Shown: positions 1 through 19,758 of the stretch, one piece after another | Position numbering within the stretch: position 1 is the first letter of the stretch | Layout of the letters: the number at the start of each line of letters is the position of its first letter | Assembly: GCA_965612865.1 (NCBI GenBank) | Contig: CBFDTJ010000014.1 | Coordinates: forward strand, 1 to 25,027 | Source: an uncultured bacterium | GTDB lineage: Bacteria; Caldisericota; Caldisericia; B22-G15 | Direction: 5' to 3' | DNA length: 25,027 bases | Notes under the pieces: model-generated | Database searches by the model: none | Told to the model about the DNA's origin: nothing | Seen by the model: only the letters and a program-made list of their open reading frames with translations | Position numbers and translations under genes: made by a program

Positions 1-65
1 TACGGCGACCACCGAGATCTACACCTAAGCCTTCGTCGGCAGCGTCAGATGTGTATAAGAGACAG
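1..65 (+). other. Illumina Nextera adapter (technical sequence): P5 lacking its first 5 nt, i5 index CTAAGCCT, Read1 primer site, Tn5 mosaic end
   Basis: 1-24 TACGGCGACCACCGAGATCTACAC (P5), 25-32 CTAAGCCT (N/S508 index), 33-46 TCGTCGGCAGCGTC, 47-65 AGATGTGTATAAGAGACAG. Confidence 0.99.
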
Positions 66-121
66 ATATAAAATATTGCAGCTTTGAAATCAAATTTAGG
101 TTTGTATATGGTTTTTTCCAT
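66..121 (-). CDS. 5' fragment of a hypothetical protein (MEKTIYKPKFDFKAAIFY...), truncated by the adapter
   Basis: ATG at 121 preceded by SD-like GAGGT; the frame stays open up to the adapter junction at 65/66. Confidence 0.55.
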
Positions 122-141
122 GTTATAACCTCTAGCTATTT

Positions 142-213
142 TTATAAATATCTTTCCAATACTTTTCCAGCCAAAAAACAATCAGTTACCATCGCTATTC
201 CAAGTGCCTTCAT
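142..213 (-). CDS. possible 23-aa small ORF (MKALGIAMVTDCFLAGKVLERYL)
   Basis: ATG at 213 preceded by AGAGGA, TAA at 142-144, about 34 nt downstream of the TTTAAA box; no recognised homology. Confidence 0.3.
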   Translation of the reverse strand: MKALGIAMVTDCFLAGKVLERYL

Positions 214-240
214 GTTGAATCCTCTGATAAAATTTAATTC

Positions 241-260
241 AAAAGGTTTAAATTTTTCCC
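241..260. promoter_or_regulatory. putative archaeal-type BRE/TATA element, possibly bidirectional
   Basis: palindromic TTTAAA at 247-252 with a purine-rich upstream flank on each strand (AAAAGG on +, GGGAAAAA on -), midway between divergent ATGs at 213 and 288. Confidence 0.45.
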
Positions 261-287
261 AATGTTAATAAGGAGTAGGGATATATA

Positions 288-1736
288 ATGATTCTTATAA
301 GACTGGATAGAAACGACATAAAAATAATAGTCCGAGATTTGGGTGCTATATTAATTTTAATCGGTTATCTTTTGATTTTTCCTGCCATAATTGCATATTA
401 TTTTGGGGAAGAATATCTTAGTTTTTTATCTCTAAGTTGCGTGACCATATGGATAGGATTTGGGTTAAAAAAACTTTATGAAGAGGCTGGAGAAACTAAG
501 CTCAAGCATGCGATGGTTAGCGCAGGTTTAGCTTGGCTACTCGTTCCTTTAGTATGCTCGTTACCCTTTCTGGGATTCGTTGGCTTCTTAGACGCTTACT
601 TCGAAAGCATGTCTGGATTTACTACCACGGGATTAACGATATTTAAGAACGTGGAAACTCTGCCAAAGAGCATATTGTTCTGGCGAGCTCTTATTCAATG
701 GATAGGCGGCATAGGAGTGGTAATGCTTTTCTTGCTGATTCTTATGCAAGTCGGTATAGGGGTTGCTAGATTTTATACCGCAGAGGGCAGAGAAGAAAGA
801 ATTGCCCCAACAATCTCCTCAACGGTAAGAAAAATCTGGCAACTCTATCTTTTCTACACCGTATTTGGGATAATTTTATATTATATAGCTGGCATGAATC
901 TCTTTGATGCAACTTGTCATACTTTCACAGCTCTTGCGACCGCAGGATTTTCTACAAAAAACGCTAGCATAGGCAGCTATAATAGCACGTTTATAGAGAT
1001 AGTCTCCTTAGTTTTAATGTTCATAGGTGGAGTGAGCTTTCTTCTACACTACAAGCTCCTCACCGGTAGAAAGGAAGAGGTAATAAAAGATCCCGAAATA
1101 AGAATATATGTTGGTGTTATACTGACGTGTACATTGTTAATTACTATAGACCTATTTTTGAAGGGTAATAATATAGTTAAATCATTTAACTATGCTCTTT
1201 TCCATTCAGTCTCAGCGATAACCACAACGGGCTTCTCTATCTCCGACCTTTCTACTTTTCCCGAATTTTCTAAAGCCATTCTTACGTTGCTCATGGTCTC
1301 AGGTGGTTGTGCTGGTTCAACTGCTGGAGGTATGAAGATATTCAGAATATTAATTCTACTCAAGCTCGCATATTATCAAAACTTAAAAGAAATTCTTCCA
1401 AGTAGTAGCGTTATAACGTTCAAAATAAAGGAAAGGGTTATCGAGGATGAAGACCTACTTAGAATAACAACATTTTTCTTCCTTTATACTTCTATAGTAT
1501 TTGTGATAGGGATAATTCTAACAGAGTTTGGATTAAGTTTTGTAGATGGTTTGGCTATAGCTGCTTCAGCCCAAGGAAATGTTGGATTAGTTACCGTTTC
1601 TTCGCTTCAATGGTATTCCTTGCCTTCGATAGCAAAACTTCTATTAATAATTCAGATGTGGGTAGGAAGATTGGAGATATATCCCGCCTTCGCATTGTTC
1701 TATGCTATATTCTCAAGCTGGAAGAAGGAGAAATAG
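288..1736 (+). CDS. trkH: TrkH-family potassium uptake membrane protein
   Basis: 482-aa polytopic protein with four pore loops (SGFTTTG, TALATAG, SAITTTG, SAQGNVG), plus FWRALIQWIGGIG, GGCAGSTAGGMK and WVGRLE motifs. Confidence 0.95.
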   Translation: MILIRLDRNDIKIIVRDLGAILILIGYLLIFPAIIAYYFGEEYLSFLSLSCVTIWIGFGLKKLYEEAGETKLKHAMVSAGLAWLLVPLVCSLPFLGFVGFLDAYFESMSGFTTTGLTIFKNVETLPKSILFWRALIQWIGGIGVVMLFLLILMQVGIGVARFYTAEGREERIAPTISSTVRKIWQLYLFYTVFGIILYYIAGMNLFDATCHTFTALATAGFSTKNASIGSYNSTFIEIVSLVLMFIGGVSFLLHYKLLTGRKEEVIKDPEIRIYVGVILTCTLLITIDLFLKGNNIVKSFNYALFHSVSAITTTGFSISDLSTFPEFSKAILTLLMVSGGCAGSTAGGMKIFRILILLKLAYYQNLKEILPSSSVITFKIKERVIEDEDLLRITTFFFLYTSIVFVIGIILTEFGLSFVDGLAIAASAQGNVGLVTVSSLQWYSLPSIAKLLLIIQMWVGRLEIYPAFALFYAIFSSWKKEK

Positions 1737-1739
1737 ACG

Positions 1740-2288
1740 ATGAAGATAGTAATAGGTCTAACTGGAAAAATTGGCGCTGGCAAAAGCGCTGTTGCAAAAT
1801 ATATTAGTAAAAACTATAACGCAAGCGAGCATAGGTTTTCTCAGATACTTATGGATATTCTCGACAGACTTTATCTTCCACATAAAAGAGAATATCTCCA
1901 AAGTCTTGGAGCATGTTTAAGAAAAATTAGGGAGGATGTAATAGTAGAAGCCTTCAAAAAAGATTTGGAAAAAGACAAATCAGAAATCATAGTAATAGAT
2001 GGCATAAGATACCCAAATGAGGTGAAAATGCTAAGAAGCTTTGAGAAAAATGTTTTGATTTGTATAGAAGCTCCTGTAGAGCTTAGATATGAAAGATGCA
2101 AGAAAAGAAAAGAAAAGGAAGAGACGCGCCTAACCTTTGAAGAATTTTTAAAGAACGAAGAAGCTGAAACCGAGAAAAGAATAGAGGAAATATGTAAAGA
2201 GGCTGACTTTATTATAAATAATGATTCAACCTTAGAAGAACTTTTCAAAAAAGTAGATGAGATAATGGAGTTAATTGCTCAAAAATAG
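1740..2288 (+). CDS. P-loop nucleotide kinase, dephospho-CoA kinase-like (COG0237, archaeal type); substrate uncertain
   Basis: Walker A GLTGKIGAGKS, VIDGIRYPNE, IEAPVELRYER and ADFIINNDSTLEEL motifs; starts 3 nt after the trkH stop. Confidence 0.85.
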   Translation: MKIVIGLTGKIGAGKSAVAKYISKNYNASEHRFSQILMDILDRLYLPHKREYLQSLGACLRKIREDVIVEAFKKDLEKDKSEIIVIDGIRYPNEVKMLRSFEKNVLICIEAPVELRYERCKKRKEKEETRLTFEEFLKNEEAETEKRIEEICKEADFIINNDSTLEELFKKVDEIMELIAQK

Positions 2289-2648
2289 AACTAATTTCTT
2301 ACCATTAACCTCTCTTACTGTAGAAAACTCTTCTACTGGTTTCTCCTTATTACCAAAATATATTAGCGGAATTTCTTTTATTTTAATCTTTTTCTGGATC
2401 TCTATTCTTTTATTCCTTTTATTACCGTTGTCTAAAATTCTTACTTCATACTTGGGCTCTTCTATCACTAAATAGTCGGGACCTATAAAGGATCTTAATA
2501 CTATGGTTCTCTTTCCATCATCTCTAACAAACTTCTCAACCTTTTTTAGCGCCTCTTCAGGAGAATAGCTTCTTTTAAAGAACAAACCCTCAGTATATAC
2601 TTTTGAAGCTTTTAGAATTTCATTTTTTATTATTTTCTCCTCTATCAT
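2271..2648 (-). CDS. hypothetical protein, 125 aa
   Basis: Lys/Glu/Ile-rich composition like the neighbouring real genes; overlaps the kinase tail-to-tail by 18 nt. Confidence 0.65.
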   Translation of the reverse strand: MIEEKIIKNEILKASKVYTEGLFFKRSYSPEEALKKVEKFVRDDGKRTIVLRSFIGPDYLVIEEPKYEVRILDNGNKRNKRIEIQKKIKIKEIPLIYFGNKEKPVEEFSTVREVNGKKLVLFLSN

Positions 2649-2802
2649 CTCTATTTCCCCCTTTTGTAGATTGTCTTTTACTTATACCTTCTAAATAATT
2701 TTCGGGGATTATCCCTCTAGCTATATCTCTTTTAATTACTCTCTCTGTATACTCCTCTGAAAATCTTATAATTTCTTCTTTTATTTTCTCCATTATTCTC
2801 AT
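2620..2802 (-). CDS. hypothetical protein, 60 aa
   Basis: ATG preceded by GGAAGGTGA SD; N-terminus resembles that of the downstream 125-aa ORF; alternative ATG at 2793. Confidence 0.55.
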   Translation of the reverse strand: MRIMEKIKEEIIRFSEEYTERVIKRDIARGIIPENYLEGISKRQSTKGGNRDDRGENNKK

Positions 2803-2825
2803 TTGTTTTCACCTTCCTTATTTTT

Positions 2826-3590
2826 CTAATTTTTATAAAATGAGTTACTAAAATACCTTTCTCTTATTTTTGTGAGTTCAAAGAGGGCGATGCCTGCTGA
2901 TACTGATGCATTTAGGGAGTTTACCTTTCCATACATGGGAATCTTTAAGACCATATCACTTTTTTCAATAACCTTTTTACCTGCTCCCTTTCCCTCTCCT
3001 CCAACTACGAGAACCACAGGGAATGGAATGTCCACCTTTCCAAGAATTTGTTTTCCTTTCATATCAAGGGTAACTATCCATAAGCCTTTCTCTTTCAGTG
3101 TTTCAATCCCTGAAAGAACACTTCCTATCTCATAGATTGGAATGTGGAATATGCTCCCTGCTGATGCCTTAATTACAGATGGAGTTATGGTAACTCCTCT
3201 TCTCTTTGGAAAAATAATTCCCTTTACTCCAAAACACTCAGAGCTTCTTATTATTGCGCCAAAATTCTCCGGATCCTCTATGTTTGATACAAGAACATAT
3301 ATGTCACTCTTTCCCGCCTTTATCTCTCTTATATCCCTTATCCTTACAGGGGATACATATGCAATAACACCCTGAGACTTTGGATAATCTTTAAAAAAGT
3401 TTTTATCCTTAAATGTAAATGGTACCTTCTTCTCTTTCAGTAGATTCTCAAGCTCTCTTATTTCCTTTCCCTTAACCCCAAACTTTATTATGACCTTGAG
3501 TACCTTTCCGGATTTAACTGCTTCAATTACAGGATTTCTTCCATAAACTATGTTATTCTCTTCTGAAGTAGATGGTTTCCCTCTTTCCAT
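2826..3590 (-). CDS. rlmB: 23S rRNA (Gm2251) 2'-O-methyltransferase, SPOUT family
   Basis: YGRNPV N-terminal motif and SPOUT motifs EDPENFGAIIRS, VGGEGKG, IPMYGKVNSLNASVS; follows cysS; GAGGTGA SD upstream. Confidence 0.92.
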   Translation of the reverse strand: MERGKPSTSEENNIVYGRNPVIEAVKSGKVLKVIIKFGVKGKEIRELENLLKEKKVPFTFKDKNFFKDYPKSQGVIAYVSPVRIRDIREIKAGKSDIYVLVSNIEDPENFGAIIRSSECFGVKGIIFPKRRGVTITPSVIKASAGSIFHIPIYEIGSVLSGIETLKEKGLWIVTLDMKGKQILGKVDIPFPVVLVVGGEGKGAGKKVIEKSDMVLKIPMYGKVNSLNASVSAGIALFELTKIRERYFSNSFYKN

Positions 3591-5007
3591 CCCTCACCTC
3601 ATATCCAAGCTCCTTGAGCCTGTCTCTTATTTTATCTGCCTTTTCATACTCTTTATTCTCCCTCATCTTCTTTCTCTCATCTATTATCTTCTTTATAAGT
3701 TCCTCCTCTTCCTTCTCCTCATCTCCCTTTTCAATAAGATTAAAGTCAGAAAGAATCTTTATTAGTTCCTCCTTTAAATTCTTAATCTCTTTAAAGGAAA
3801 TTTTTATTCCAAGTATGTTTAACATATCCTCAAATACCTTTAGTGCATAACCAAAACTTCCCTCCCCTCCTTCTCCTTTAATCTTATTTATAAATTTAAA
3901 TAAAACTCCGAGGGCACCCTGAGTATTAAAATCATCATCCATAAAGGATGTAAACTCTTTCATTGCATCATCAGAGATTTTCCTTATCTTTTCATCATCC
4001 TCAGGGAATTTCTCCTTCATCATCTTGAGGAAGTTGTAAAACTCCTTAATTCTTTCATAGGATTTTTTTATCTCATTCAGTTTCTCAAAGGAAAAGTCTA
4101 TGGGAGAGTGATAGTCACCTGAAAGAAGAAACAATCTTAAAACTTCTGGCTGATACTTCTTTAAGAGCTCTTCAATGGTAAAGAAGTTCCCAAGAGATTT
4201 GCTCATCTTTTCCTTGTTTACAGTTATAAGGCCATTGTGAAGCCAGTATCTTACATAGGGTTTATCTCCTGCCCATGCCTCAGATTGAGCTATCTCATTC
4301 TCATGATGAGGGAAAATAAGGTCAATTCCACCACCGTGAATATCGTATCCAAAACCAAGGTACTTCATGGACATAACAGAGCATTCAATATGCCATCCCG
4401 GTCTTCCCTTTCCCCATGGAGAATTCCACGCTGGCTCTCCCGGTTTCTGCTTCTTCCATAGTGCAAAATCAAGGGGGTCTTTCTTTGTTTCATCCACAGG
4501 GATTCTTGCTCCCTTTATTAAGTCCTCTATTTTTCTTCTTGAAAGTTTCCCGTATTCAGGAAATTTTTTCACTGAAAAGTAAACCCCTGTGTCTGTTTCA
4601 TAGGCAAAGCCTTTATTCTCAAGTTCCTTTACCATCTTTATAATGCCATCTATATTCTCTGTAACCCTTGGATATATGTTTCCCTCTCTATCAACATTGA
4701 ATAGCTTAAGATACTTTTCATACATTAAGATAAAGGTTTCTGCAATCTCCTTTGGTGAAATTCCCCACTCATTTGCCCTTTTTATGATCTTATCGTCTAT
4801 ATCTGTGTAGTTTTGAACATACTTAACTTCAAATCCTTTAAATTTCAGATACCTTTTTATGGTATCAAAGACAACAAAGGCCCTTGCGTGTCCAAGATGG
4901 GGGTAGTTATCAGGGGTGAGACCACAAACATACATATAAATCTTTCCTTTCTCTCTTGGAACAAGTTCCTCTTTTTTTCTCGTCAGTGTATTGTATACTC
5001 TAATCAT
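3553..5007 (-). CDS. cysS: cysteine--tRNA ligase
   Basis: YVCG..HLGH, NYTDIDDKII, DFALWK, GRPGWHIECS, HGGGIDLIFPHHENE, KMSKSLGN, MDDDFNT. Confidence 0.98.
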   Translation of the reverse strand: MIRVYNTLTRKKEELVPREKGKIYMYVCGLTPDNYPHLGHARAFVVFDTIKRYLKFKGFEVKYVQNYTDIDDKIIKRANEWGISPKEIAETFILMYEKYLKLFNVDREGNIYPRVTENIDGIIKMVKELENKGFAYETDTGVYFSVKKFPEYGKLSRRKIEDLIKGARIPVDETKKDPLDFALWKKQKPGEPAWNSPWGKGRPGWHIECSVMSMKYLGFGYDIHGGGIDLIFPHHENEIAQSEAWAGDKPYVRYWLHNGLITVNKEKMSKSLGNFFTIEELLKKYQPEVLRLFLLSGDYHSPIDFSFEKLNEIKKSYERIKEFYNFLKMMKEKFPEDDEKIRKISDDAMKEFTSFMDDDFNTQGALGVLFKFINKIKGEGGEGSFGYALKVFEDMLNILGIKISFKEIKNLKEELIKILSDFNLIEKGDEEKEEEELIKKIIDERKKMRENKEYEKADKIRDRLKELGYEVRDGKRETIYFRRE

Positions 5008-5022
5008 TATTTACCTCCACTG

Positions 5023-6459
5023 TCAGGCTTCCCTTACCTCCAAAATTGCCTCTGAGAGCCTCTTAACACTCTCTTCTTTTCCAAGAAGATATATATAGAT
5101 GTATATCTCTGGTCCTTCTCTCTTATGTGTTATTGCCACCCTCAATGGAAAGTAGAGTCTCTTTCCCTTAAAACCAAGTTCCTTTCCTGTTTTTCTTATG
5201 AGTGTTAGAATTTCATTTTCATCCCACTCTGAAAGTGATGAAAGGTTCTTCATAAACCCCTCAAGCAAAGGAATAAATTCCTTCAAGTATTCTTTATCGT
5301 CTTCTAAGAGAGGTGGCGGGGAAAATATATCCTTGATTATGAGATTTAAATCCTTAAGAAGTGTCATGTGTTCTCTAAGAAGCCTTGTTGCCTCTTTTAT
5401 CCAATTATCGGATAGGGAGGGAAACTCTTTTTTTACGAAGGGTTTTACCCTCTCAAAAATAACTTCCAAGGGAAGTGTCTCCATGTATTTGTGATTCATC
5501 CACTTTAATTTTGATAATGAAAATATTGCGTTACTCTTTGAAAGGTTGTCTATGTCAAACTCTTTAATGAGTTCTTCCATTGTGAAAAATTCCTTCTCCT
5601 TTGACTTTGGAGACCATCCAAGAAGCGCCATGTAATTTATTAGAGCCTCTGGGAGAAAACCATCAAATCTATAGTCTCTTAAGGATACACTTCCGTGTCT
5701 TTTTGAGAGCTTTGTGTGATCTTCACCAAGAATCATGGGGAGATGAATAAATTCAGGAACAGGAAAGCCAAGAGCTTCATAGAGAAGAACCTGCCTTGGT
5801 GTGTTTCCATGAAGATGGTCTTCTCCTCTCATAACATGGGTTATTTTCATCAAAGCGTCGTCAATCACAACTGCAAAGTTGTATGTCGGAATTCCATCAG
5901 ACCTAAGAATCACAAAATCGTCAAGGTTCTCCATGGGAAAGGTGAGTTCTCCCCTCAATCTATCATAGACTTTAACCTCTCCAGAGAGTGGTGTTTTAAA
6001 CCTTACAACAGGGATTCTTCCCTCTTCAAATTTCTTTCTTCTCTCTTCCTCTGTAAGATTCCTACATCTACGGGAGTATTTTGGCATCTCTCCTCTTTTT
6101 ATTGCCTCCTCTCTGTCTCTTTGTAATTCCTCTGGAGCGCAGAAGCAGTAATACGCCTTATCCTCTTTAAGAAGCTTATCAATGTATTTTTTATAAATAT
6201 CAAGTCTTTCACTCTGTCTGTATGGTCCATAGGGTCCACCTATATCAGGACCCTCATCCCACTCTATACCAAGCCACTTAAGTCCATCAATTATATCTTC
6301 TTCATACTCCTTTTTTGAACGGAGCTTATCTGTATCTTCAATTCTTAATATGAGTTTTCCTCCCTTACTTTTTGCAAATAAGTAGTTAAAAAGAGCAGTC
6401 CTTACATTCCCTATGTGCATGTATCCAGTGGGTGAGGGCGGAAATCTAACTCTAATCAT
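5023..6459 (-). CDS. gltX: glutamate--tRNA ligase
   Basis: RVRFPPSPTG.MHIGN, LRIEDTD, PYRQSER, YYCFC, THVMRGEDH, KLSKRHG; AGGAGG SD. Confidence 0.98.
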   Translation of the reverse strand: MIRVRFPPSPTGYMHIGNVRTALFNYLFAKSKGGKLILRIEDTDKLRSKKEYEEDIIDGLKWLGIEWDEGPDIGGPYGPYRQSERLDIYKKYIDKLLKEDKAYYCFCAPEELQRDREEAIKRGEMPKYSRRCRNLTEEERRKKFEEGRIPVVRFKTPLSGEVKVYDRLRGELTFPMENLDDFVILRSDGIPTYNFAVVIDDALMKITHVMRGEDHLHGNTPRQVLLYEALGFPVPEFIHLPMILGEDHTKLSKRHGSVSLRDYRFDGFLPEALINYMALLGWSPKSKEKEFFTMEELIKEFDIDNLSKSNAIFSLSKLKWMNHKYMETLPLEVIFERVKPFVKKEFPSLSDNWIKEATRLLREHMTLLKDLNLIIKDIFSPPPLLEDDKEYLKEFIPLLEGFMKNLSSLSEWDENEILTLIRKTGKELGFKGKRLYFPLRVAITHKREGPEIYIYIYLLGKEESVKRLSEAILEVREA

Positions 6460-6489
6460 CTTTCCTCCTTTTAAACAAGGTCTTTATTA

Positions 6490-6495
6490 ATTATA
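6490..6495 (-). promoter_or_regulatory. putative sigma70 -10 element for gltX-cysS-rlmB
   Basis: perfect TATAAT on the minus strand about 30 nt upstream of the gltX ATG; no clear -35. Confidence 0.45.
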
Positions 6496-6547
6496 ACTTA
6501 ATTTAATGAGATTAAAGAATTATTTGATTTTCCTCCTTAAAGGAAAT

Positions 6548-6576
6548 TTTAATCTGACTCCTTTTTATTATACAAT
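6548..6576 (+). promoter_or_regulatory. putative sigma70 promoter for the CDP-alcohol phosphotransferase gene
   Basis: TTTAAT-17 nt-TACAAT, followed by a GGAGG SD and ATG at 6594. Confidence 0.35.
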
Positions 6577-6593
6577 AAACATGCGGAGGAAAT

Positions 6594-7118
6594 ATGGTCT
6601 CTGATATTTTGACATTTTTAAGATTTGCTTCTTCTGGCTTTATCGTTTATCTTGGTTTAATCCCGAAAGATACCTTCCCCATCTTTTTCTACACAGTGCT
6701 ATTTGCATGGGAAACAGACATTCTTGATGGATATTTAGCAAGAGCTACAGGAAAATTTTGGAAACTTGGAAAGTACGATTTTCTCTTTGATATGATCTTT
6801 GTCTGGTCAACTCTACTTTACTTCTATCTCTCTGGGAGGATAACATTAACCCTCTTTGCTTTTTATAACCTTGTTTCTTTTTCATTTATTGCACTCTTTC
6901 CATCAAAAACAACAACTATGACATTTGCCGCTCCTGTTGTCTTTGCTCCTTTCGTTATATCCTTCTTTGAATACAAATCTCTTTCAACCGCTTCCTGGAT
7001 ATGGATCGTAATAAACTTCATACTCTTCCATAAAAGATTCTTTGAGGTAATAGCAAGCTACATAAAGGGACTTAAAAGAGAGGAAGAGGCAAATCATTTT
7101 GTAAATAAAAAGCACTGA
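6594..7118 (+). CDS. CDP-alcohol phosphatidyltransferase family protein
   Basis: DILTFLR start and D-x2-DG-x2-AR-x8-G-x2-D-x3-D motif (DILDGYLARATGKFWKLGKYDFLFD); hydrophobic, 174 aa. Confidence 0.85.
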   Translation: MVSDILTFLRFASSGFIVYLGLIPKDTFPIFFYTVLFAWETDILDGYLARATGKFWKLGKYDFLFDMIFVWSTLLYFYLSGRITLTLFAFYNLVSFSFIALFPSKTTTMTFAAPVVFAPFVISFFEYKSLSTASWIWIVINFILFHKRFFEVIASYIKGLKREEEANHFVNKKH

Positions 7119-7128
7119 ACATTTCTAA

Positions 7129-7137
7129 TGGTATAAT
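7129..7137 (+). promoter_or_regulatory. extended -10 promoter (TGnTATAAT), probably giving a leaderless transcript
   Basis: TGGTATAAT at 7129-7137, 7 nt before ATG 7145, with no SD. Confidence 0.6.
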
Positions 7138-7144
7138 ACTTTTC

Positions 7145-7984
7145 ATGAGAAAGGATACTCTCTCCTTAATAGTTGCTACAATCCTCTGGGGAGTTACTTT
7201 TGTTGTTGTTAAGAAGGGTGTTGAGGCATATCATCCAGTATCATTTTTATTTTTAAGGTTCAGCATAACATTCCTTGTTCTCACGGTATTTATGGCTTTA
7301 ACAAAGAGAAAAATCAAAAATGAGATATTTGTAAAAGGATTGATACTTGGCATTTTTCTATTCTTTGGATACATTCTTCAAACTGTTGGTTTAAAATACA
7401 CAACCCCATCAAAGAGCGCATTTTTAACATCTCTTGCCGTGTTATTCACTCCATTTATATCTCTCTTTATACTCAAAACAAAGATAAAGTTTAGAACAGT
7501 GCTTGCCGTCATTTTAGCTTCCGCAGGAATATATCTTATGTTTGGGCTCTCAATAGATACAATTAACATTGGAGATATTCTTACAATTCTTTGTGCTGTA
7601 AGCTGGGCTTTTCACATTGTTTTCGTTGGACTTTTATCCATAAAAGAGGAAAACTTTGGACTTCTATTTGTGGAGGTATGGGTGGTTCTTATCCTGTCTG
7701 GGTTATTCATAATAACCACAGGAGTTAAGACAATTCCCATACCCACTGTTTCTCTAAATGGAGCAATAATAACTTCTCTCTTTGCAACCATTGTTCCTTT
7801 CTATATACAGCTAACTTTCCAGACAAGAGAAAACACCATAAAGGCAAACTTCATCTATGCCACAGAACCTGTTTTTGCTGCACTCTTTGAATTCTTCTTT
7901 TTAGGTGTTGTGTATGGAATTATAAATTATGTGGGTATGCTTTTTATTTTTCTTTCCGCTCTCCTTGCTCAGAAAGAAGGTTAA
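7145..7984 (+). CDS. EamA/DMT family transporter
   Basis: ILWGVTFVVVK, FLFLRF, LQTVGLKYTTPSKSAFLTSL, GDILTILCA and IYATEPVFA motifs; two EamA repeats. Confidence 0.93.
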   Translation: MRKDTLSLIVATILWGVTFVVVKKGVEAYHPVSFLFLRFSITFLVLTVFMALTKRKIKNEIFVKGLILGIFLFFGYILQTVGLKYTTPSKSAFLTSLAVLFTPFISLFILKTKIKFRTVLAVILASAGIYLMFGLSIDTINIGDILTILCAVSWAFHIVFVGLLSIKEENFGLLFVEVWVVLILSGLFIITTGVKTIPIPTVSLNGAIITSLFATIVPFYIQLTFQTRENTIKANFIYATEPVFAALFEFFFLGVVYGIINYVGMLFIFLSALLAQKEG

Positions 7985-8028
7985 AAATTCGCAACTCTGG
8001 GTGCCTGGCACCTGGCGTTGCATTTTTT
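7984..8028. terminator. likely bidirectional intrinsic terminator between convergent eamA and ecfT
   Basis: near-perfect 31-nt hairpin at 7991-8021 (GCAACTCTGGGTGCCTGGCACCTGGCGTTGC), T6 tract at 8023-8028 and an A-tract on the other side. Confidence 0.75.
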
Positions 8029-8040
8029 AAGTGAAGGAAG

Positions 8041-8841
8041 TTAAATTCCAAATATGATTGGGGAGATGCTTACAAAAATTGAAATTAAAAGAAAGATTGT
8101 ATCAGAAAATCTCCAGTTTAGTTTCCTCATGTAAGTTCTCTTCTTTCCTGGCTGGAAACATCTTATTTCCATAGCCACTGCAAGATCTTCTGCTCTTTTG
8201 AAGGCAGAGACAAAGAGAGGAACGAGGATGGGAATGAGACTTTTGGCTCTCTTAAATATGTTTCCTTCATCAAAGTTAGCACCTCTGCTGGTTTGAGCCT
8301 TTATAATCCTTTCTGCCTCTTCCATAAGCACTGGAATAAATCTTAAAGCAATGGTTATCATAATAACAAGTTCACCGGATGGGAAACCAATCTTTTCAAG
8401 GGGTAGAAGAAGGAACTCAAGACCCCTTGTAAGTTCAAGAGGAGTTGTGGTGAATGTAAGGATTGAAGAGATAAGTATAAGAAGGATGAGTCTTATACCT
8501 ATAAAACTTCCCCTCACAATACCCTCTCTTGTGAGTTTCAGGAAGTAGAATTTAAATATCACATGTCCCTCTGTAAAGAAGAAGTGGAAGAATATGGTAA
8601 AGACAAGGAGAATAAGTATTGGTTTCAGTCCCTTTAAAACATGCTTCACAGGAATTTTAGAAAGAATAAAGAGTATTAAAAGCAAAATAAAAACAGGAAT
8701 AAATCCATAAAGGGTCTTTGTAAAGAAAAGGAAGATCATCAGTATGAGGAATGAAACCATCTTTCCCCTTGGATCAAGGGAGTAAACAAATCCTTCACCT
8801 GGAAAGTACTGACCGACTATAAGAGTGTCTTTAGAAATCAT
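8041..8841 (-). CDS. ecfT: ECF transporter transmembrane T component
   Basis: GQYFPG..LDPRGK, TTTPLEL, IALRFIPVL, AQTSRGA, LVPLFVSAFKRAEDLAVAMEIRC. Confidence 0.95.
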   Translation of the reverse strand: MISKDTLIVGQYFPGEGFVYSLDPRGKMVSFLILMIFLFFTKTLYGFIPVFILLLILFILSKIPVKHVLKGLKPILILLVFTIFFHFFFTEGHVIFKFYFLKLTREGIVRGSFIGIRLILLILISSILTFTTTPLELTRGLEFLLLPLEKIGFPSGELVIMITIALRFIPVLMEEAERIIKAQTSRGANFDEGNIFKRAKSLIPILVPLFVSAFKRAEDLAVAMEIRCFQPGKKRTYMRKLNWRFSDTIFLLISIFVSISPIIFGI

Positions 8842-9710
8842 ATGTTTTTCACTATCTCCTTCTTTGCAATTAAGGAATCTCTAAAAGGCTCATCTATCTT
8901 AAATCCCTTCTCTTTCAGTTCCTCACCAAGAAGGAATATATCTGGCACTGAGAGATCAAAAAGTTCAACAATTTCCTTGTTTTTAAAAACTTCCTCAATT
9001 TCTCCCTCCACAACTATCCTTCCCTCCTTGAGAACAAAGATTCTATCAACAAGGGAGAGAATATCCTCCATAGAATGGGAAACAAATATGACAGTCACAT
9101 CCTTCTCACTCTTAAGCTTCTTAACAACAGAGAGTATCTCTTCCCTTCCCTGAGGATCAAGACCTGCCGTTGGCTCATCAAGAACAAGAATTTCAGGCTT
9201 CATTGAAAGAACTCCTGCTATTGCCACCCTTCTCTTTTCACCACCTGAAAGAGAGAATGGAGACCTTTCAAGATACTCACTGGTTAAACCAACCTCATCA
9301 ATAGCCCACATAACCCTTTCCTTCACTTCATCCTCTGAAAGTTTTAGATTCCTTGGACCAAAAGCAATATCATCGTAAACAGTTTCTGCAAAGAGCTGGG
9401 ATTCTGGAAATTGAAAAACAAGACCCACCTTTCTCCTTAGCTCTTTTAAAAACCTCTTATCATTTTTAATCTCTTCTCCAAAGACTTTTACAGTTCCAAC
9501 CTGTGGTAAGATAAGACCATTAAAATGCTGAATAAGTGTGGATTTTCCACTTCCTGTGTGTCCAACTATTCCCACAGCCTCCCCTTTAAAAATCTTGATA
9601 CTTACAGAAGTTAAGGCTTCTTTTTCATAGGGAAGCCCGCGACTGTAAATATAACTTAAACCCTTAACTTCAATTGCAATATCTCTTTTAAGAGATCCTC
9701 TCTCTTCCAA
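8838..9710 (-). CDS. ecfA2: ECF transporter ATPase A2
   Basis: GHTGSGKST, VFQFPESQLF, SPFSLSGGEKRRVAIAG, DEPTAGLDP; TTG start with GGAGGT SD. Confidence 0.93.
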   Translation of the reverse strand: MEERGSLKRDIAIEVKGLSYIYSRGLPYEKEALTSVSIKIFKGEAVGIVGHTGSGKSTLIQHFNGLILPQVGTVKVFGEEIKNDKRFLKELRRKVGLVFQFPESQLFAETVYDDIAFGPRNLKLSEDEVKERVMWAIDEVGLTSEYLERSPFSLSGGEKRRVAIAGVLSMKPEILVLDEPTAGLDPQGREEILSVVKKLKSEKDVTVIFVSHSMEDILSLVDRIFVLKEGRIVVEGEIEEVFKNKEIVELFDLSVPDIFLLGEELKEKGFKIDEPFRDSLIAKKEIVKNI

Positions 9711-10486
9711 AGCTTTACCTCCAGAGGGTATCCTTCCTTCTTCAACAAATAAGAAAGATAGGTGAGTGGGGGAACGGATAGATCAATACTTTTTAATCTC
9801 TCAACTTCTTTAAAGACATCTTGAGGGGGTCCATCCATCTCTATCCTTCCATCATTTAAAACTATTACCCTCTGCGACATTGATGCTTCTTCCATTCTGT
9901 GAGTTATAAGCACTATGGTTATACCCTTCTTATGTAATTTCAATATTAAATTAATTACATCTCTTCTTCCCCCTGGATCCAGAAGAGATGTTGGCTCATC
10001 AAGAACAAGGTACTTTGGCTCCATGACTAAAACACCTGCAATGGCAAGTTTCTGCTTCTGTCCCCCTGAGAGAAAATGGGGAGGAAAGTTTTTAAATTCG
10101 TAAAGACCAACCTCTTCAAGAACTCCATCAACCCTTTCTCTTATCTTATCTGGAGGAAAATTTAGATTTTCAAGTCCAAAGGCAACATCTTCTTCCACAA
10201 TCTGTGAAACAATCTGATTATCTGGATTCTGAAAAACCATGCCAACCTTCCTTCTTATCTTGTAAAGATTCTCCTCCTCCCTCGTGTTCATGCCATCAAC
10301 AAAAACCTCCCCTTCTGAGGGGAGGAGGAGAGCTGATATTAATCTTGCAAGAGTTGACTTACCTGATCCGTTTCTTCCTATTATGCTGACAAATTCACCC
10401 TTATCAATCTTAAGATTAACATCTTTAAGTACATCAATCCTTTCGGGTGAGAGGTAAGAAAAAGAAACATTCTTAAATTCAATCAC
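9656..10486 (-). CDS. ecfA1: ECF transporter ATPase A1
   Basis: GRNGSGKST, VFQNPDNQIV, LSGGQKQ, DEPTSLLDP; GTG start overlapping the rplQ stop. Confidence 0.93.
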   Translation of the reverse strand: MIEFKNVSFSYLSPERIDVLKDVNLKIDKGEFVSIIGRNGSGKSTLARLISALLLPSEGEVFVDGMNTREEENLYKIRRKVGMVFQNPDNQIVSQIVEEDVAFGLENLNFPPDKIRERVDGVLEEVGLYEFKNFPPHFLSGGQKQKLAIAGVLVMEPKYLVLDEPTSLLDPGGRRDVINLILKLHKKGITIVLITHRMEEASMSQRVIVLNDGRIEMDGPPQDVFKEVERLKSIDLSVPPLTYLSYLLKKEGYPLEVKLWKREDLLKEILQLKLRV

Positions 10487-10836
10487 TCTTTTATAAGCTC
10501 AATTATTACCTGGAACGAACCATCACCCCTTCTTTCACCTAAGGGAATTATTCTGGTGTATCCACCATCTCTTCCTTCAAACCTGTCTTTAATTTCCTCA
10601 AGATGCTTACCTGCTTCCTTTGAAAGAAGAAGCGAATAAACTTTTCTCCAATCATGGAGTGTATCTTTCTTTGCCCATGTTATAACCCTGTCTGCAAGTC
10701 TTCTAACTTCCTTTGCCCTTGCCTCAGTGGTTACAATTCTTTCATGGATAATAAGAGATGTAAGAAGATTCCTTAGCATCATTTTCCTGTGAGAAGGAAA
10801 TCTGTTTAGTTTTCTATAGCCTGCTCTATGCCTCAT
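10483..10836 (-). CDS. rplQ: 50S ribosomal protein L17
   Basis: MRHR..RKLNR..HR, ERIVTTEARAKE, GGYTRI, RRGD. Confidence 0.98.
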   Translation of the reverse strand: MRHRAGYRKLNRFPSHRKMMLRNLLTSLIIHERIVTTEARAKEVRRLADRVITWAKKDTLHDWRKVYSLLLSKEAGKHLEEIKDRFEGRDGGYTRIIPLGERRGDGSFQVIIELIKE

Positions 10837-11954
10837 TTTTTCTTCTCCTTTCTAAGAAATAGATTCCATTTCCTAAGTTTGTTCTCTATCCTCTTAACCC
10901 TCTTTGAGGGAAGCTCAAATTTATCAGACAGAAGATCTGAAGCACTATACCCTAAAAGATCCTTTAAGGTCTTTATTCCGCCCTCTTTTAATCTCATGAG
11001 CTCCTCATCGGTCAATGCAAATTCATCCATAAGTTCATCAATTGGCTTAGAGAAGAATGAAGGCTCTTCCACAGCCTCTTCTGTTTTGAAGAGCACCTCT
11101 CTTATCTCCTCAATGGACTTCTCTCCTATTCCTCTTATATCCTTTATGTCTCCAGAATTTACCAGCTTTTTAAGTTGGGTGACTGTCTCTATTCCCTCTT
11201 TTCTTAAGATGTTCTTTATTCTACTTGGAATGGGGAGTAACTCCACAGAGAGTTCTTTCTTTACCTCTTCCTCTTTGAATTCGCTTATAATGCCCATGTA
11301 ATACTTGAGAATCTCAGATGCTTCCTTCAAGGCTTTTCTCGGGTTTATTGCACCATTGGTATAGATTTCCATAACCAGTTTCTCTCTCTTCGGGAATGGT
11401 GCAACATCTGAAGAAGAGACCTCAAAATTTACCTTCCTTATGGGGGAGAAAATTGTATCCATAAATATTGTATTTATTGGAAATCCCTTCTCCTTATTCT
11501 CTGATTCTAAATTGTATCCAAAACCTCTTTTAACATAAGCAGTAATCTCTACTTCACCTTTCTTGTCTGTTATGGTGAATAGGTGCTGATCCGGGTTCAC
11601 TATCTCTATATTTGGATTTGGGTCAAAGTCCGAAGCCTTAACCTCCTTTTCTCCTTTAACTTTCAGGTGAAGTTTATCTCTATCAAGTGAACCCTTTATT
11701 ATTACCTGTTTTAAATTAAATATTATTTCTGGCACATCTTCATACACATGAGGAATAGATGTAAATTCGTGGGTGATACCACTTATTTCCACAGCGTAAA
11801 TGCCATAACCTCTTATGGAAGAAAGAAGAACTCTCCTTAGAGCGTTGCCAAGTGTTATTCCATAACCTCTATAGAGAGGATCAACAACAAACTTTAAGTA
11901 ATTCTCCTTCTCTTCCAGGACTTTTACTTTCGGTCTTCCACTTAAATACTCCAT
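10833..11954 (-). CDS. rpoA: DNA-directed RNA polymerase subunit alpha (373 aa, two alphaCTD-like domains)
   Basis: PLYRGYGITLGNALRRVLLSSI, HEFTSI, FSPIRKVNFEV; located between rpsD and rplQ. Confidence 0.97.
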   Translation of the reverse strand: MEYLSGRPKVKVLEEKENYLKFVVDPLYRGYGITLGNALRRVLLSSIRGYGIYAVEISGITHEFTSIPHVYEDVPEIIFNLKQVIIKGSLDRDKLHLKVKGEKEVKASDFDPNPNIEIVNPDQHLFTITDKKGEVEITAYVKRGFGYNLESENKEKGFPINTIFMDTIFSPIRKVNFEVSSSDVAPFPKREKLVMEIYTNGAINPRKALKEASEILKYYMGIISEFKEEEVKKELSVELLPIPSRIKNILRKEGIETVTQLKKLVNSGDIKDIRGIGEKSIEEIREVLFKTEEAVEEPSFFSKPIDELMDEFALTDEELMRLKEGGIKTLKDLLGYSASDLLSDKFELPSKRVKRIENKLRKWNLFLRKEKKK

Positions 11955-11964
11955 CTTTCACCCC

Positions 11965-12591
11965 TTACTTGGAGTAGAACTCAACAACGAGTTCTTCTTT
12001 AATTGGAGTATCTATCTGGTCTCTTGTGGGAACTGAAAGAACCTCTATTGTAAAGTTGTCAAAGTTTGTGTTGAGCCATGGAGGAACAAAGGGTTTTTGC
12101 TCTATGGCAGAAAGAACTGTGGGTATATTTTTTGCCTTTGGTCTTAACTGAATCTTGTCTCCTGGTTTTACCTCAAAGGATGGAATTGTAACTTTTCTTC
12201 CATTTACAAGAACATGACCATGGGAGACAAGCTGTCTTGCAGCAGACCTTGAAACTGAAAGTCCTCCTCTAAAAACTACATTGTCGAGCCTTCTCTCAAG
12301 TAGCTCAAGGAGTTTTTCACCTGTGGCAATCTTTCTCTGAGATGCAGCTCTTTCAAAGTACCTTCTAAACTGTCTCTCCATAACTCCATATATCTTCCTT
12401 AGTTTCTGTTTCTCCCAGAGATGTATTGCATAATCTGAGGGTTTGGATTTTCTTCTTATACCCTGCATACCTGGTGGAGAGAACTTTCTCTCAAGGGGAC
12501 ATTTGGATGTATAGCACTTTTCACCCTTTAGAAACAGTTTCACACCAAGTCTTCTGCAAACTCTACATTTGGGTTTGGTAAGTTTAGCCAT
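11965..12591 (-). CDS. rpsD: 30S ribosomal protein S4 (zinc-binding form)
   Basis: CRVCRR..LFLKGEKC, LERRLDNVVFR, ARQLVSHGH, VVEFYSK; start moved to ATG 12591, which has a GGAGGT SD. Confidence 0.97.
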   Translation of the reverse strand: MAKLTKPKCRVCRRLGVKLFLKGEKCYTSKCPLERKFSPPGMQGIRRKSKPSDYAIHLWEKQKLRKIYGVMERQFRRYFERAASQRKIATGEKLLELLERRLDNVVFRGGLSVSRSAARQLVSHGHVLVNGRKVTIPSFEVKPGDKIQLRPKAKNIPTVLSAIEQKPFVPPWLNTNFDNFTIEVLSVPTRDQIDTPIKEELVVEFYSK

Positions 12592-12602
12592 ATCTACCTC
12601 CT

Positions 12603-12977
12603 TTAGACCCTTCTTCTCTTTGGAGGTCTGCAACCATTATGTGGAATTGGTGTTACATCCTTTATGGATTTAACAACCAGACCTCCAGTTTGAAGAGCTC
12701 TTACTGCAGTCTCTCTACCTGGACCTGGACCTTTAATAAAGACATCAACATACTTTGCTCCCATATTTACTGCCTTTTTTGCAACTGACTCTGCTGTAAG
12801 CTGAGCAGCAAAAGGTGTACCTTTTTTTGTCCCTTTAAACCCAGCAGTACCTGCAGAACCCCATGTAATCACATTGCCATTCTTATCAGTAATGGTAACT
12901 ATTGTATTGTTGAATGTGGACTGAATATAAGCATTCACATACTCGTCTATTCTTTTTTTCTTTTTCTTTTTAGCCAT
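12603..12977 (-). CDS. rpsK: 30S ribosomal protein S11
   Basis: [45 protein letters not shown]. Confidence 0.98.
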
Positions 12978-12989
12978 CTACTCCTCCTT

Positions 12990-13355
12990 TTATCTCTTTC
13001 TTCCTATAGTTTTCCTTGGGCCTTTTCTTGTCCTTGCGTTGGTTCTTGTTCTCTGACCTCTTACTGGAAGACCCCTCTTGTGCCTCATTCCTCTATAGCA
13101 GTTAATGTCTACGAGTCTTCTGATGTTGGAAGCGATTTCTTTACGAAGCTCTCCTTCAACCTTGTAGTTCTTGGGGATGAACTCGTTAAGAGCCTTAATC
13201 TCCTCCGGTGTCAGGTCTTTCACTTTTTTGTTTATGTCAAGACCCACCTTCTCAACTATCTCCTTAGCCCTTGAGTGACCTATACCATAAATATAAGTCA
13301 GGGCTATATCTATTCTCTTGTTTTTTGGTAAATCTATACCAACAACTCTTGCCAT
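12990..13355 (-). CDS. rpsM: 30S ribosomal protein S13
   Basis: [33 protein letters not shown]. Confidence 0.98.
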
Positions 13356-13363
13356 AACTCCTC

Positions 13364-13477
13364 CTATCCTTGTCTCTGTTTATGTTTTGGGTTAGAGCAA
13401 ATTACCATAACCCTTCCCTTTCTTTTTATAATCCTGCACTTAGGACATATCTTTTTTACTGAAGACCTTACCTTCAT
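13364..13477 (-). CDS. rpmJ: 50S ribosomal protein L36 (not in the ORF track)
   Basis: manual translation gives [39 protein letters not shown] upstream. Confidence 0.98.
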
Positions 13478-13488
13478 CCTATCCTCCT

Positions 13489-13710
13489 TTAAGAAAGTCT
13501 ATAAACAATTCTACCCTGAGTAGGGTCGTATATAGATATCTGGAGTTTAACTCTATCTCCAGGAACAACCCTGATGGAGTGGAGTCTCATTTTTCCACTC
13601 ACAAAGGCTTTTATTATTTTTCCGTTTGGAAGCTTAACCTTAAAGTTCATGTTCGGAAGAGTCTCAACAACAATTCCTTCTACTTCTACGTATTCTTTTT
13701 TCTTTTCCAT
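13489..13710 (-). CDS. infA: translation initiation factor IF-1
   Basis: [36 protein letters not shown] overlaps the map TGA (in-frame GTG at 13713 also possible). Confidence 0.97.
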
Positions 13711-14471
13711 CACCTCACCTCCTCTGGAACAGTGAGAATCAAAGGACCCTTTGCTGTAATAGCAATTGTGTGTTCAAAGTGCACACACGGACCATCATCA
13801 ACAGTTTTTGCAGTCCATCCGTCGTCCTCTACCTTCGTCTTTCCGCTACCTATACATATCATCGGTTCAATGGCTATGGTCATTCCTTCCTTTAATACAG
13901 GTCCTTCACTCCTGTCTCCAAAGTTTGGAACCTGCGGATCCTCATGTAAACTCCTACCAATTCCGTGTCCCACATACTCCTTTACAACACTAAAACCATT
14001 CTCTTTCACAAACTCTTCAATGGCATTAGATATAACTCCACGTCTGTTTCCTACCTTCGCCTTTGATATCCCAAGGTAAAGTGCTCTCTCTCCAACCTCA
14101 AGAAGTTTTCTTTTTTTCTTGTCTATTTCTCCAACAGGAACTGTAAATGCCATATCTGAGTAGTATCCTTTATATTTAAGTCCTATATCAAGAGACACGA
14201 GGTCTCCGTCTTTGAACACCTTTTCCTTTGACGGAAAACCGTGAACTACCTCACTGTTCACAGAGACGCAGAGCGTATAAGGATAGCCTCTATAACCCTT
14301 AAAGGCAGGTTCTGCATTGAGGCTCCTTATCTTTTTCTCAGCAAACTCATTCAGTTTGTACGCAGAGACTCCTTCCTTTACCATCTTTTTTAACTCTTCC
14401 ATCACCTCTGAGAGAAGCATTCCAGCTCTTCTCATAATTTCTATTTCAGCCTTACTCTTTAGTATTATCAT
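13710..14471 (-). CDS. map: methionine aminopeptidase type I
   Basis: [41 protein letters not shown]. Confidence 0.97.
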
Positions 14472-15099
14472 CTATAGTCTTCACTATTCTATTAAAAACT
14501 TCATCAGGAGTTCCTTCTCCATCTATCTCGAAGAGTATTTTCCTCTCTCTATAAAAATCTATAAGAGGGAGGGTATTCTTCTTAAACTCCTCAATTCTCT
14601 TTTTAACAACTTCGAGATTGTCATCTTCTCTCTGAATTAACTTTTCACCATCAAAATCGCAAATTTCGTCGTTCTTTGGAGGATTAAAATAGATATTGTA
14701 AATCCTCCCGCATTTAGGACAAACTCTTCTTCCTGTTATTCTCTTTACAATTGTATCCTCAGAAAGTGTAAGGTAAAGAACAAAATTCAAAGGATTGTTG
14801 TTTAGTTTAAGAAACTTTTCAAGTTGCTCTGCCTGAAATAGAGTTCTTGGAAAACCATCAAGGACAAAACCTTCCAAATTATTAATTTTATCAAAAACTA
14901 TTTCATTTACAACTTCATCGGGAACAAGCTTTCCCTCTTTAAGGATGTCTTTCACCTTTTTTCCAAGAGGAGTCTCATTTCTTATATTCTCTCTGAATAT
15001 ATCTCCTGTAGCGATATATGGAATATTAAACTTTTCTGAAAGTTTTCTTCCCTGAGTTCCTTTACCAACTCCAATGTTTCCAAGCATGACAATCTTCAT
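14452..15099 (-). CDS. adk: adenylate kinase with zinc-binding LID
   Basis: GKGTQ, TGDIFR, GKLVPD, LDGFPRT, GRRVCPKC..CDFDG, QREDD. Confidence 0.97.
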   Translation of the reverse strand: MKIVMLGNIGVGKGTQGRKLSEKFNIPYIATGDIFRENIRNETPLGKKVKDILKEGKLVPDEVVNEIVFDKINNLEGFVLDGFPRTLFQAEQLEKFLKLNNNPLNFVLYLTLSEDTIVKRITGRRVCPKCGRIYNIYFNPPKNDEICDFDGEKLIQREDDNLEVVKKRIEEFKKNTLPLIDFYRERKILFEIDGEGTPDEVFNRIVKTIDDNTKE

Positions 15100-16367: not shown

Positions 16368-16371
16368 CTTC

Positions 16372-16824
16372 TCACCTCACCACTTCAACCTTTCCCCCTG
16401 CTTTCTCAATCTTTTCCTTTGCGCTTTCACTAAAAGCGCTTGCTTTTACTGTAAGGGGAAAATCTATCTCTCCTCTTCCAAGAATCTTAACAAATCTAAC
16501 TCTTTCCTTTATTATTCCTTTATCTTTAAGTGTGTCTATATCAACGGTGTCTCCTTGTTTAAAGAACTCTGATAGTGTATCAATATTTATTTCAGCCATT
16601 ATCTTCCTGTTTTTTCTACTCTTAAAACCTTTAAGCTGGGGAAGTCTCTTATATATTGGGGTCTGTCCACCTTCAAACCAGCTCTCTTTTCCTCTTCCAC
16701 TTCTTGATTTCTGTCCTTTATTTCCGTATCCTGCATTCTTTCCAGAGCCTGATCCTGGTCCTCTTCCAACTCTAAATTTTTTCTTCCTTGGAAAAGGGTT
16801 AGAGAGGTTATTCAACTTTACCAT
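16372..16824 (-). CDS. rplO: 50S ribosomal protein L15
   Basis: [42 protein letters not shown]. Confidence 0.98.
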
Positions 16825-17323: not shown

Positions 17324-17334
17324 CTCATCTCCTC

Positions 17335-17703: not shown

Positions 17704-17712
17704 ATTTCCTCC

Positions 17713-19757: not shown

Positions 19758-19758
19758 C

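Follow-up and report, generated by a model that had tools for sequence, protein, structure and literature searches.

The 25,027-nt stretch of DNA analysed here (the window), a contig of the Caldisericia genome G000, begins with archaeal DNA that passes directly into a bacterial core-gene region, and the junction between the two is very probably an artefactual inter-domain join; most likely, it is not a real biological feature. The block at 66..2841 is, by best matches and trees, archaeal in origin, both parents exist separately in other samples, and their sequences overlap by 21 bp. It is likely that the contig is an in-silico chimera, produced by an assembly misjoin at this shared word. A chimera had already been preferred in the preliminary description of the window, and this reading is the best supported one, albeit on the grounds of the exact overlap and the separately existing parents. 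The parts of the window are as follows.

1..65, plus strand: contig-end adapter, which we take to be untrimmed Illumina/Nextera adapter, index and mosaic end; non-genomic
66..2841, no strand: archaeal block from a Ca. Hydrothermarchaeota-related lineage (run X4 contig, identity to genome G021, composition)
288..1736, plus strand: trkH, predicted K+ channel subunit, 482 aa, archaeal type (PF02386, E=1e-66)
1740..2288, plus strand: predicted P-loop nucleotide kinase, 182 aa, AAA_18/CoaE/DNMK-like (PRK08356-like, below cut-off)
2271..2648, minus strand: orfA, orphan protein of 125 aa from the block's archaeal lineage (55% identity to G021:C88)
2620..2802, minus strand: orfB, 60-aa orphan ORF (identical protein on three contigs)
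2821..2841, no strand: site of the join, an AT-rich word of 21 bp with 1 G/C, exact in both parents
2842..2848, no strand: bacterial strain-variable spacer, 7 bp (homologue of an 8-bp spacer in L057)
2826..3590, minus strand: rlmB, 23S rRNA methyltransferase of the Caldisericia host, 254 aa (TIGR00186, over cut-off)
3553..25027, minus strand: Caldisericia core region with cysS, gltX, ECF transporter genes and the alpha/spc/S10 ribosomal cluster (gene names beyond cysS recognised by eye from ORFs)

Archaeal origin of the block

TrkH matches PF02386 over its full length (225.5 bits against a cut-off of 27) and scores 312 with TIGR00933, just below the cut-off of 331; its family membership suggests a function in K+ transport. 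Like the TrkH/TrkG proteins of Ca. Hydrothermarchaeota (PF02386, TIGR00933), it is full length at 482 aa, and it shares 72% identity with the protein of G021, a Ca. Hydrothermarchaeota genome that is archaeal by marker profiles over cut-off, and 49–57% with those of six further genomes of the phylum. The identities to G021 are 73% for the kinase and 55% for orfA, while at the DNA level the two sequences are 71% identical over trkH and the kinase gene. In a FastTree tree, without bootstrap, that includes all 12 Caldisericia copies and a reduced set of other rows, TrkH falls into a Hydrothermarchaeota clade with a support of 99 and apart from all 12. By best matches and trees, the kind of check that the preliminary description had proposed, TrkH, the kinase and orfA group with this phylum. 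The archaeal origin suggested there is upheld, but the closest relationship is to a Ca. Hydrothermarchaeota genome; Altiarchaeota matches rank second, and do so solely for the kinase.

Neither TrkH nor the kinase is unusual in Hydrothermarchaeota. Copies of the kinase were found in 23 of the 38 genomes of the phylum (E<1e-40), where the PRK08356-like or dephospho-CoA-kinase-like P-loop enzymes are 42–73% identical to it, and eight of the nine global matches that carry a taxon name are archaeal. Unlike these families, the block kinase scores below all curated equivalog cut-offs. The gene order also differs, by eye, from that of relatives: several of the Hydrothermarchaeota genomes have a trkA-like neighbour after trkH, a place occupied by the kinase gene in the block, which has no trkA, and in most relatives inspected the kinase follows a dCMP-deaminase-like gene instead of trkH. 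The orfA/orfB region is variable among archaeal strains. A homologue of orfA is present in only one of the 38 genomes (G021), and the protein collection holds three, one of them on a 25,034-bp contig; its search of the ESM Atlas gave no usable match, and its model has a pLDDT of 0.40. The protein identical to orfB occurs on three contigs, the longest also of 25,034 bp, and profile searches assigned orfB to no family. A frameshift splitting orfB from orfA was considered and rejected, as there is no indel at this place relative to the run X4 contig.

The composition of the block matches that of G021. As the preliminary description had stated, CTAG occurs four times in 66–2830 (132, 766, 964 and 2717; 0.36 expected at the host rate, P=5.5e-4) and not at all in 2831–25027, and CG is more frequent left of the join, with an observed/expected ratio of 0.70 in the block against 0.28 (57 CG, 30.7 expected, P=1.4e-5); the corresponding ratios are 0.64 for the archaeon and 0.33 for the host. 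A Markov score of archaeon versus host, taken in 200-bp bins, is positive in 13 of 14 bins over 66–2865 and negative in 11 of 11 over 2866–5065. The TATA-like boxes previously described at 247–252 and 2834–2839 are indeed present, but cannot serve as an archaeal signal, since the motif occurs at that distance before 8.9% of host genes (41 of 460) and 12.2% of archaeal genes (20 of 164). A sigma-70 scan of 66–3100 returned 10 sites, with 9.9 expected.

The bacterial side of the join

Beyond the join, the window is by its sequence Caldisericia. RlmB is 97–100% identical to its homologues in the same-genus genomes G001 and G002 and shares a cluster with a member labelled Caldisericia, while the cluster members of RpoA and CysS are labelled Caldisericia or Caldiserica. 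The atypical tail of RlmB had been regarded as a sign of the junction. The protein is indeed 6 aa longer than in relatives (254 versus 248 aa) and overruns TTTTATAAAA, but bases 2842–2848 lie on the bacterial side of the switch, and the tail is rejected as a product of the join. This spacer differs from its 8-bp counterpart in L057, a further strain of the bacterium, by three substitutions and one indel, and the usual RlmB stop is lost because it is one base shorter; the long tail is probably a bacterial allele. A run X3 unitig that ends exactly at 2849 would reflect a second allele, the first base of which is unlike that of the G001-like one.

Behind rlmB, this genus has a variable slot into which foreign cassettes are taken up, an observation that counts against a misjoin. 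At least four continuations are known here, namely that of G001, two in X3/L057 and that of the window. A conserved DUF7670 gene, which G001 and G002 also have, closes the slot in L057; it was not found in G000, which is weak evidence for a misjoin given that this genome is 87.6% complete. The yraN gene, the neighbour of rlmB in the sister genus, was rejected as the native continuation, since in this genus it lies elsewhere, among other genes.

Separate parents and the shared word

Logan contigs of runs X1–X4 were aligned to the window, and a metagenome scan was added. In run X4, positions 69–2841 lie inside a 25,034-bp contig (record positions 7919–10693) with 16 differences and two gaps, so that the block is 99.4% identical to a free archaeal parent; all four block proteins are also found on a contig of 25,034 bp, and depth in this run is zero over 2866–3865, with no cover of rlmB. 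The bacterial parent is represented by L057, which is 95.4% identical to the window over 2821–3230 and in which rlmB is followed by the 21-mer and then by the restriction-modification genes of a DpnII-family nuclease and a methylase. Run X3 has no depth over 66–2665 and shows a loose end at 2821, where 27 of 32 columns are, by eye, like the L057 continuation, suggesting that restriction-modification genes follow rlmB here as well. Run X1 holds both organisms, as does X2; depth in X1 falls from 14.9 to 6.0 over orfA/orfB, and the archaeal piece ends at 2841. By best matches and trees, the two sides of the join come from different organisms, and each occurs elsewhere with another continuation. 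The join itself did not recur in any independent sample or assembly among the records searched: none of the 32 pieces listed from the four runs, next to 243 further pieces and 74 loose ends outside the listing, bridges the block and rlmB, and the one pattern match of the metagenome scan, which may leave out records very near the window's genome, lacks the block.

The pieces from X4 and X1 match the window up to 2841, and L057 and one X3 contig match it down to 2821; therefore, the parents overlap by exactly 21 bp. The switch maps to this word, and not to the breakpoint at 2830–2860 given in the preliminary description. A length of 21 is the usual smallest (default) k-mer of assemblers, and the overlap at 2821–2841 is of just this length. 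The word has a single exact copy in G000 and none in G001, G002 or G021. Words of this kind are shared by chance: G000 and 442 kb of G021 have six of at least 21 bp in common, five of them exactly 21 long, which scales to about 18 per genome pair. The word was also considered as a dif-like or att-like site and rejected, as it has no second copy, no clean symmetry and no repeat family; an AT-rich inverted pair at 133–151/2829–2847 (79%) was treated as chance.

A probable assembly misjoin

The proposed course of events begins with two organisms of the same vent sediments, a Hydrothermarchaeota-related archaeon and a Caldisericia bacterium, which would share the AT-rich word by chance, just upstream of orfB in the former and just downstream of rlmB in the latter. 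In a de Bruijn graph with a smallest k of 21, the word would form one node with two entries and two exits. Given thin coverage and strain-variable DNA in both parents, the assembler may have left rlmB via the archaeal exit and continued for 2.8 kb, up to the point where adapter terminates the reads, after which binning would have placed the archaeal piece in the bacterial genome. Of these events, the assembler step is an inference. The adapter, previously taken as a sign of a chimera, is rejected as evidence, since 80 of the 111 contigs carry one and 29 have it at both ends. Counted against a misjoin are the close depths of trkH–kinase and rlmB in X1 (14.9 and 13.8) and the finding of two contig records each for a protein identical to the 254-aa RlmB and for one identical to TrkH.

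Interspecies chimeras were reported in 69.4% of near-complete MEGAHIT MAGs from CAMI data (10.64898/2026.10.15.759294). As in the chimeric contigs described in passages on short-read MAGs (10.64898/2026.10.15.759294; PMC8682757), the foreign segment of the window lies near a contig end, is missed by marker-based contamination scores (0.69% for G000) and mimics horizontal transfer. Unlike in those passages, the parents belong to different domains and the join is mapped to an exact 21-bp word from independent samples; a shared-word mechanism is not stated in the passages concerned.

Alternative explanations

It is unlikely that the chimera arose in the library, from a partly extended strand that primed on the other organism via the 21-bp homology during amplification and subsequently guided assembly. 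One or a few such molecules would suffice, exactly the microhomology found would be required, and the library is of a transposase/PCR type with thin, adapter-terminated contig ends. Nevertheless, the word would be a poor primer (1 G/C, computed Tm about 35 C), an overlap of exactly 21 fits a k-mer size better, and one index pair dominates the contig ends (39/41 and 49/50), with no sign of whole-genome amplification seen.

A very recent archaeon-to-bacterium transfer by illegitimate recombination at the word, through which one strain would have gained a second TrkH from at least 2.8 kb of the chromosome of a co-occurring archaeon, is quite improbable. The polymorphic slot, the co-occurrence of both organisms in X1 and X2, the similar depths in X1 and the intactness of both rlmB and orfB at the join are all consistent with such an event. 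It is opposed by the lack of a bridging record in the scan and among the pieces listed from four runs, by the near identity of the block to its free parent without amelioration toward host composition, and by the absence of the block from 20 relatives, the best kinase matches in 92 other Caldisericota genomes reaching only 32–33% identity. Furthermore, the block reaches the adapter-bearing contig end without a return to bacterial sequence, and it lacks trkA, while the host has its own TrkH/TrkA pair on another contig (C35). Literature searches listed nothing about this locus or about transfer from archaea into Caldisericia.

It is highly improbable that the block represents one end of an integrative element, with the rlmB 3' end as attachment site and the word as recombination core. 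The same word does follow rlmB with different cargo in L057 and X3, the orfA/orfB region varies among the archaeal strains, L018 has a tyrosine-recombinase-like fragment (by eye; no Pfam/NCBIfam match) 1.3 kb past the kinase, and the block resembles tyrosine-recombinase islands in its foreign composition and sharp edge at a core gene 3' end. These islands differ, however, in having an integrase, a tRNA, a duplicated att core and a second end, whereas only one block end is visible here, the word has no second exact copy in G000 and none in G001, G002 or G021, the cargo genes are commonplace in the archaeal phylum, the block has no match among viral contigs, plasmids or phages, and in X4 it extends at least 7.9 kb beyond its supposed end. 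Scans of the window, join and block agree with the preliminary description that the join has no terminator, integrase, tRNA or att-like repeat: no tRNA was detected in the whole window, neither a terminator-like site nor a direct repeat at the join, and no integrase in the block or at the join.

Implications for genome curation

If the join were true, donor, recipient and crossover of an inter-domain transfer would all be known, a rare snapshot in which archaeal DNA had entered a defence-cassette slot behind rlmB via 21 bp of microhomology. As an artefact, it is no more than a curation flag: four archaeal proteins reside in a species-representative Caldisericia genome with a contamination score of 0.69%, and gene-tree surveys would read them as archaeon-to-bacterium transfer. 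No second mappable join was found among the other foreign-looking G000 contigs annotated. A shared word of k-mer length at a compositional edge, together with the occurrence of each parent in other samples, provides a cheap test for such misjoins. The contig should be split at 2821–2841, and the ORFs that read through the adapter at 1..65 are artefacts.

Composition and origin of the left end

The window is contig C14 of the host genome (G000; 1.42 Mb in 111 contigs, completeness 87.6 %, contamination 0.69 %), and the following features were recognized at its left end.

1-65, untrimmed adapter
288-1736, trkH
1740-2288, P-loop kinase gene
2271-2648, minus strand, small ORF (orfA)
2620-2802, minus strand, small ORF (orfB)

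Adapter sequence, previously taken as a pointer to a chimera, is not specific, as 80 of the 111 host contigs carry adapter ends (both ends in 29 of them, a single index pair predominating), which indicates untrimmed reads and thin contig ends and nothing more. The higher CTAG and CG content left of the join was borne out by counting: four CTAG sites lie in 66-2830 versus none in the remaining 22.2 kb (0.36 expected in the block at the host rate, P=5.5e-4), and CG o/e is 0.70 in the block versus 0.28 in the rest of the window (30.7 CG expected for the block at the host rate, P=1.4e-5). The composition profile suggested in the preliminary description gave the same picture: of the 200-bp bins up to 2865, 13 of 14 scored positive under an order-4 Markov model that sets a Ca. 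Hydrothermarchaeota genome (G021, 341 kb of training sequence) against the host, the 11 bins that follow were all negative, and C14:71-2070 has the top score of 1242 2-kb host windows, the GC-rich start of contig C3 excepted. The TATA-like boxes do occur where they had been placed, but such a hexamer motif, found upstream of 41/460 host and 20/164 archaeal genes, has little weight as an archaeal sign.

The archaeal origin proposed for TrkH and the kinase is upheld by their best matches, by the recommended phylogeny and by the kinase distribution. TrkH has its best genome match (72 %) on contig L018 of G021, where the kinase gene also adjoins trkH, while the remaining 31 loci match at 30-38 %; orfA matches at 55 % on a different G021 contig. 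G021 itself is archaeal as judged from markers that exceed their cut-offs, namely archaeal uL16, Kae1, Dph2, archaeal topoisomerase I, Cgi121 and MfnA. The protein collection holds 18 TrkH clusters with identities of 48-99 %, after which values fall to 41 %; the three taxon-named ones are all Hydrothermarchaeales/-aceae, and the 72 % cluster has a single member with the label Thermoplasmata. In a FastTree phylogeny, the window TrkH groups with seven Hydrothermarchaeota genomes (support 99), and a distinct clade (support 100) comprises 12 Caldisericia copies, that on host contig C35 among them. The kinase is matched at E<1e-40 in 23 of the 38 genomes of the G021 phylum, its best match in 92 other Caldisericota genomes is 32 % (E=3e-9), and eight of nine taxon-named global matches are archaeal (three Hydrothermarchaeales, five Altiarchaeota). 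Both trkH and the kinase gene of the block are ordinary archaeal genes, with putative functions assigned from family membership.

In most other Hydrothermarchaeota loci inspected (L061-L068), a gene that by eye resembles dCMP deaminase directly precedes the kinase gene, which hints at a role as deoxynucleotide-monophosphate kinase rather than the dephospho-CoA kinase named by some sources. On L018, 1.3 kb past trkH-kinase, a partial ORF (3287-3751) resembles by eye a tyrosine recombinase with a C-terminal CxxC pair, and its profile search gave no match. The N-termini of orfA and orfB, both orphans of one archaeal lineage, look alike by eye, and their region (2271-2802) seems strain-variable in the archaeon; several kinase cluster members differ at the C-terminus. 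The window has one base fewer at 120 and at 178 than contigs from two other sequencing runs (X2 and X4), and the minus-strand frame upstream of trkH thus differs between strains; in 66-264 this frame has no family match.

The bacterial side

The right side of the window can be assigned to Caldisericia from its RlmB, RpoA, L2 and CysS protein clusters, which all have members so labelled; one L2 record also labelled Firmicutes and one CysS fragment labelled Thorarchaeota are probably mis-binned. RlmB is 97-100 % identical to that of the same-genus genomes G001 and G002, and the native TrkH on C35, adjoined by TrkA, is 94.2 and 98.7 % identical to their respective copies. RpoA (10833-11954) comprises 373 aa with an apparent second C-terminal-domain-like segment, a length that recurs in most cluster members listed and is thus a real trait of the genus. 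In a sister genus (L006-L011) yraN converges directly on rlmB, whereas in the host genus it lies apart, amid surface-protein genes (G000:C101:1248-1631).

In this genus, rlmB and a conserved DUF7670 gene seem to bound a variable defence slot. It holds a DpnII-family nuclease and a methylase in L057 (380-2531), a metagenome contig of another host strain, and a methylase and a DUF499 ATPase followed by the DUF7670 gene in G001 (L191, G001:C100), where the contigs are unjoined and the link to rlmB is inferred. Contigs break at the rlmB end in both G001 and G002 (L188, G002:C120); the DUF7670 gene is present in both and was not found in G000.

The join and its separate parents

Contigs of four runs were aligned over 66-6065, and none of the 32 pieces listed, 243 others being outside the listing, bridges the join. 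In X4, positions 7919-10693 of a 25,034-bp contig correspond to 69-2841 with 16 differences, the contig extends at least 7.9 kb past both block ends and rlmB has zero depth, so the block exists without the bacterium; the four block proteins are all recorded on a contig of 25,034 bp. X3 contains the bacterium and lacks the block: its rlmB unitig terminates exactly at 2849, two contigs exit with loose ends at 2849 and 2821, and bin depths are compatible with two branches of ~13x each. X1 contains both organisms, with 242-2274 at 14.9x, 2358-2841 (final base unmatched) at 6.0x and 3005-3981 at 13.8x, the archaeal depth thus dropping after the kinase gene.

A scan for the junction, in which the spacer was left unspecified, of a metagenome collection that may lack near-identical records gave one contig, L057, 95.4 % identical over 2821-3230, in which rlmB is followed by a homologous spacer, 21 bases identical to 2821-2841, the nuclease, the methylase and the DUF7670 gene. 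Compared by eye, 27 of the 32 columns after the 21-bp word agree between L057 and the X3 loose end at 2821. Together these put the overlap of the two parents at exactly 21 bp, 2821-2841, which replaces the breakpoint of about 2830-2860 proposed earlier, and make strain variation of the bacterium the most likely source of 2842-2848 and of the long RlmB tail. The tail is indeed atypical, since ERYFK ends the G001 protein (whose genomic alignment stops at 2849) and 11 of the 14 other cluster members listed, three being incomplete (15 of 22 members listed); it is most likely bacterial strain variation rather than a product of the junction.

The word has a single exact copy in G000 and, with up to two mismatches, two places in G000, none in G001, two in G002 and none in G021. 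Six exact words of at least 21 bases besides 5S rRNA are common to G000 and 442 kb of G021, five of exactly 21, which implies ~18 by chance per such genome pair.

Origin of the fusion

The fusion is likely to be a de Bruijn misjoin made at k=21, the value from which common short-read assemblers start by default. In the assembly graph the shared 21-mer would be one node that two paths enter and two leave, and the wrong pair may have survived thin coverage; both parents appear strain-variable there, with several bacterial slot alleles on one side and the depth drop and kinase C-terminal variation on the other. Three marks of an assembly chimera could be checked, and the fusion shows all of them; of the two checkable marks of real transfer, independent reproduction and either presence in relatives or amelioration, it shows neither. 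The preference for a chimera already expressed is best supported by the exact overlap of separately existing parents. PMC8682757, where misjoins are corrected at contig edges, names false horizontal transfer as one of their consequences. Search listings on archaeal-bacterial pairing at this locus held nothing relevant.

A chimera formed during library amplification is unlikely, the Tm of the word being only ~35 °C. It is quite improbable that the variable slot really received the block by a very recent transfer. The similar X1 depths of trkH and rlmB, and the foreign cassettes that the slot does acquire, speak for such a transfer and against a misjoin, and the record of an identical RlmB and an identical TrkH on one further contig each may also count against a misjoin, but neither the listed pieces nor the metagenome scan reproduced the join independently, a search of 20 relatives did not recover the block, and its composition is not ameliorated. 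An integrative element is hardly credible, with no integrase, no second core and no match in viral, plasmid or phage collections; the reported absence of a tRNA was confirmed by a scan of the window, and, also as reported, the join has neither a direct repeat nor a terminator-like site.

Apart from this probable misjoin, compositionally foreign stretches occur in C42 (distal 6 kb), C60, C67, C13, C81 and the C3 start, possibly further mis-binned or misjoined DNA. C42 carries virus-like ORFs and a methylase, C60 and C81 encode giant Kelch or Ig-repeat proteins, and on C3 an RCC1-repeat gene adjoins 5S rRNA-like sequence.
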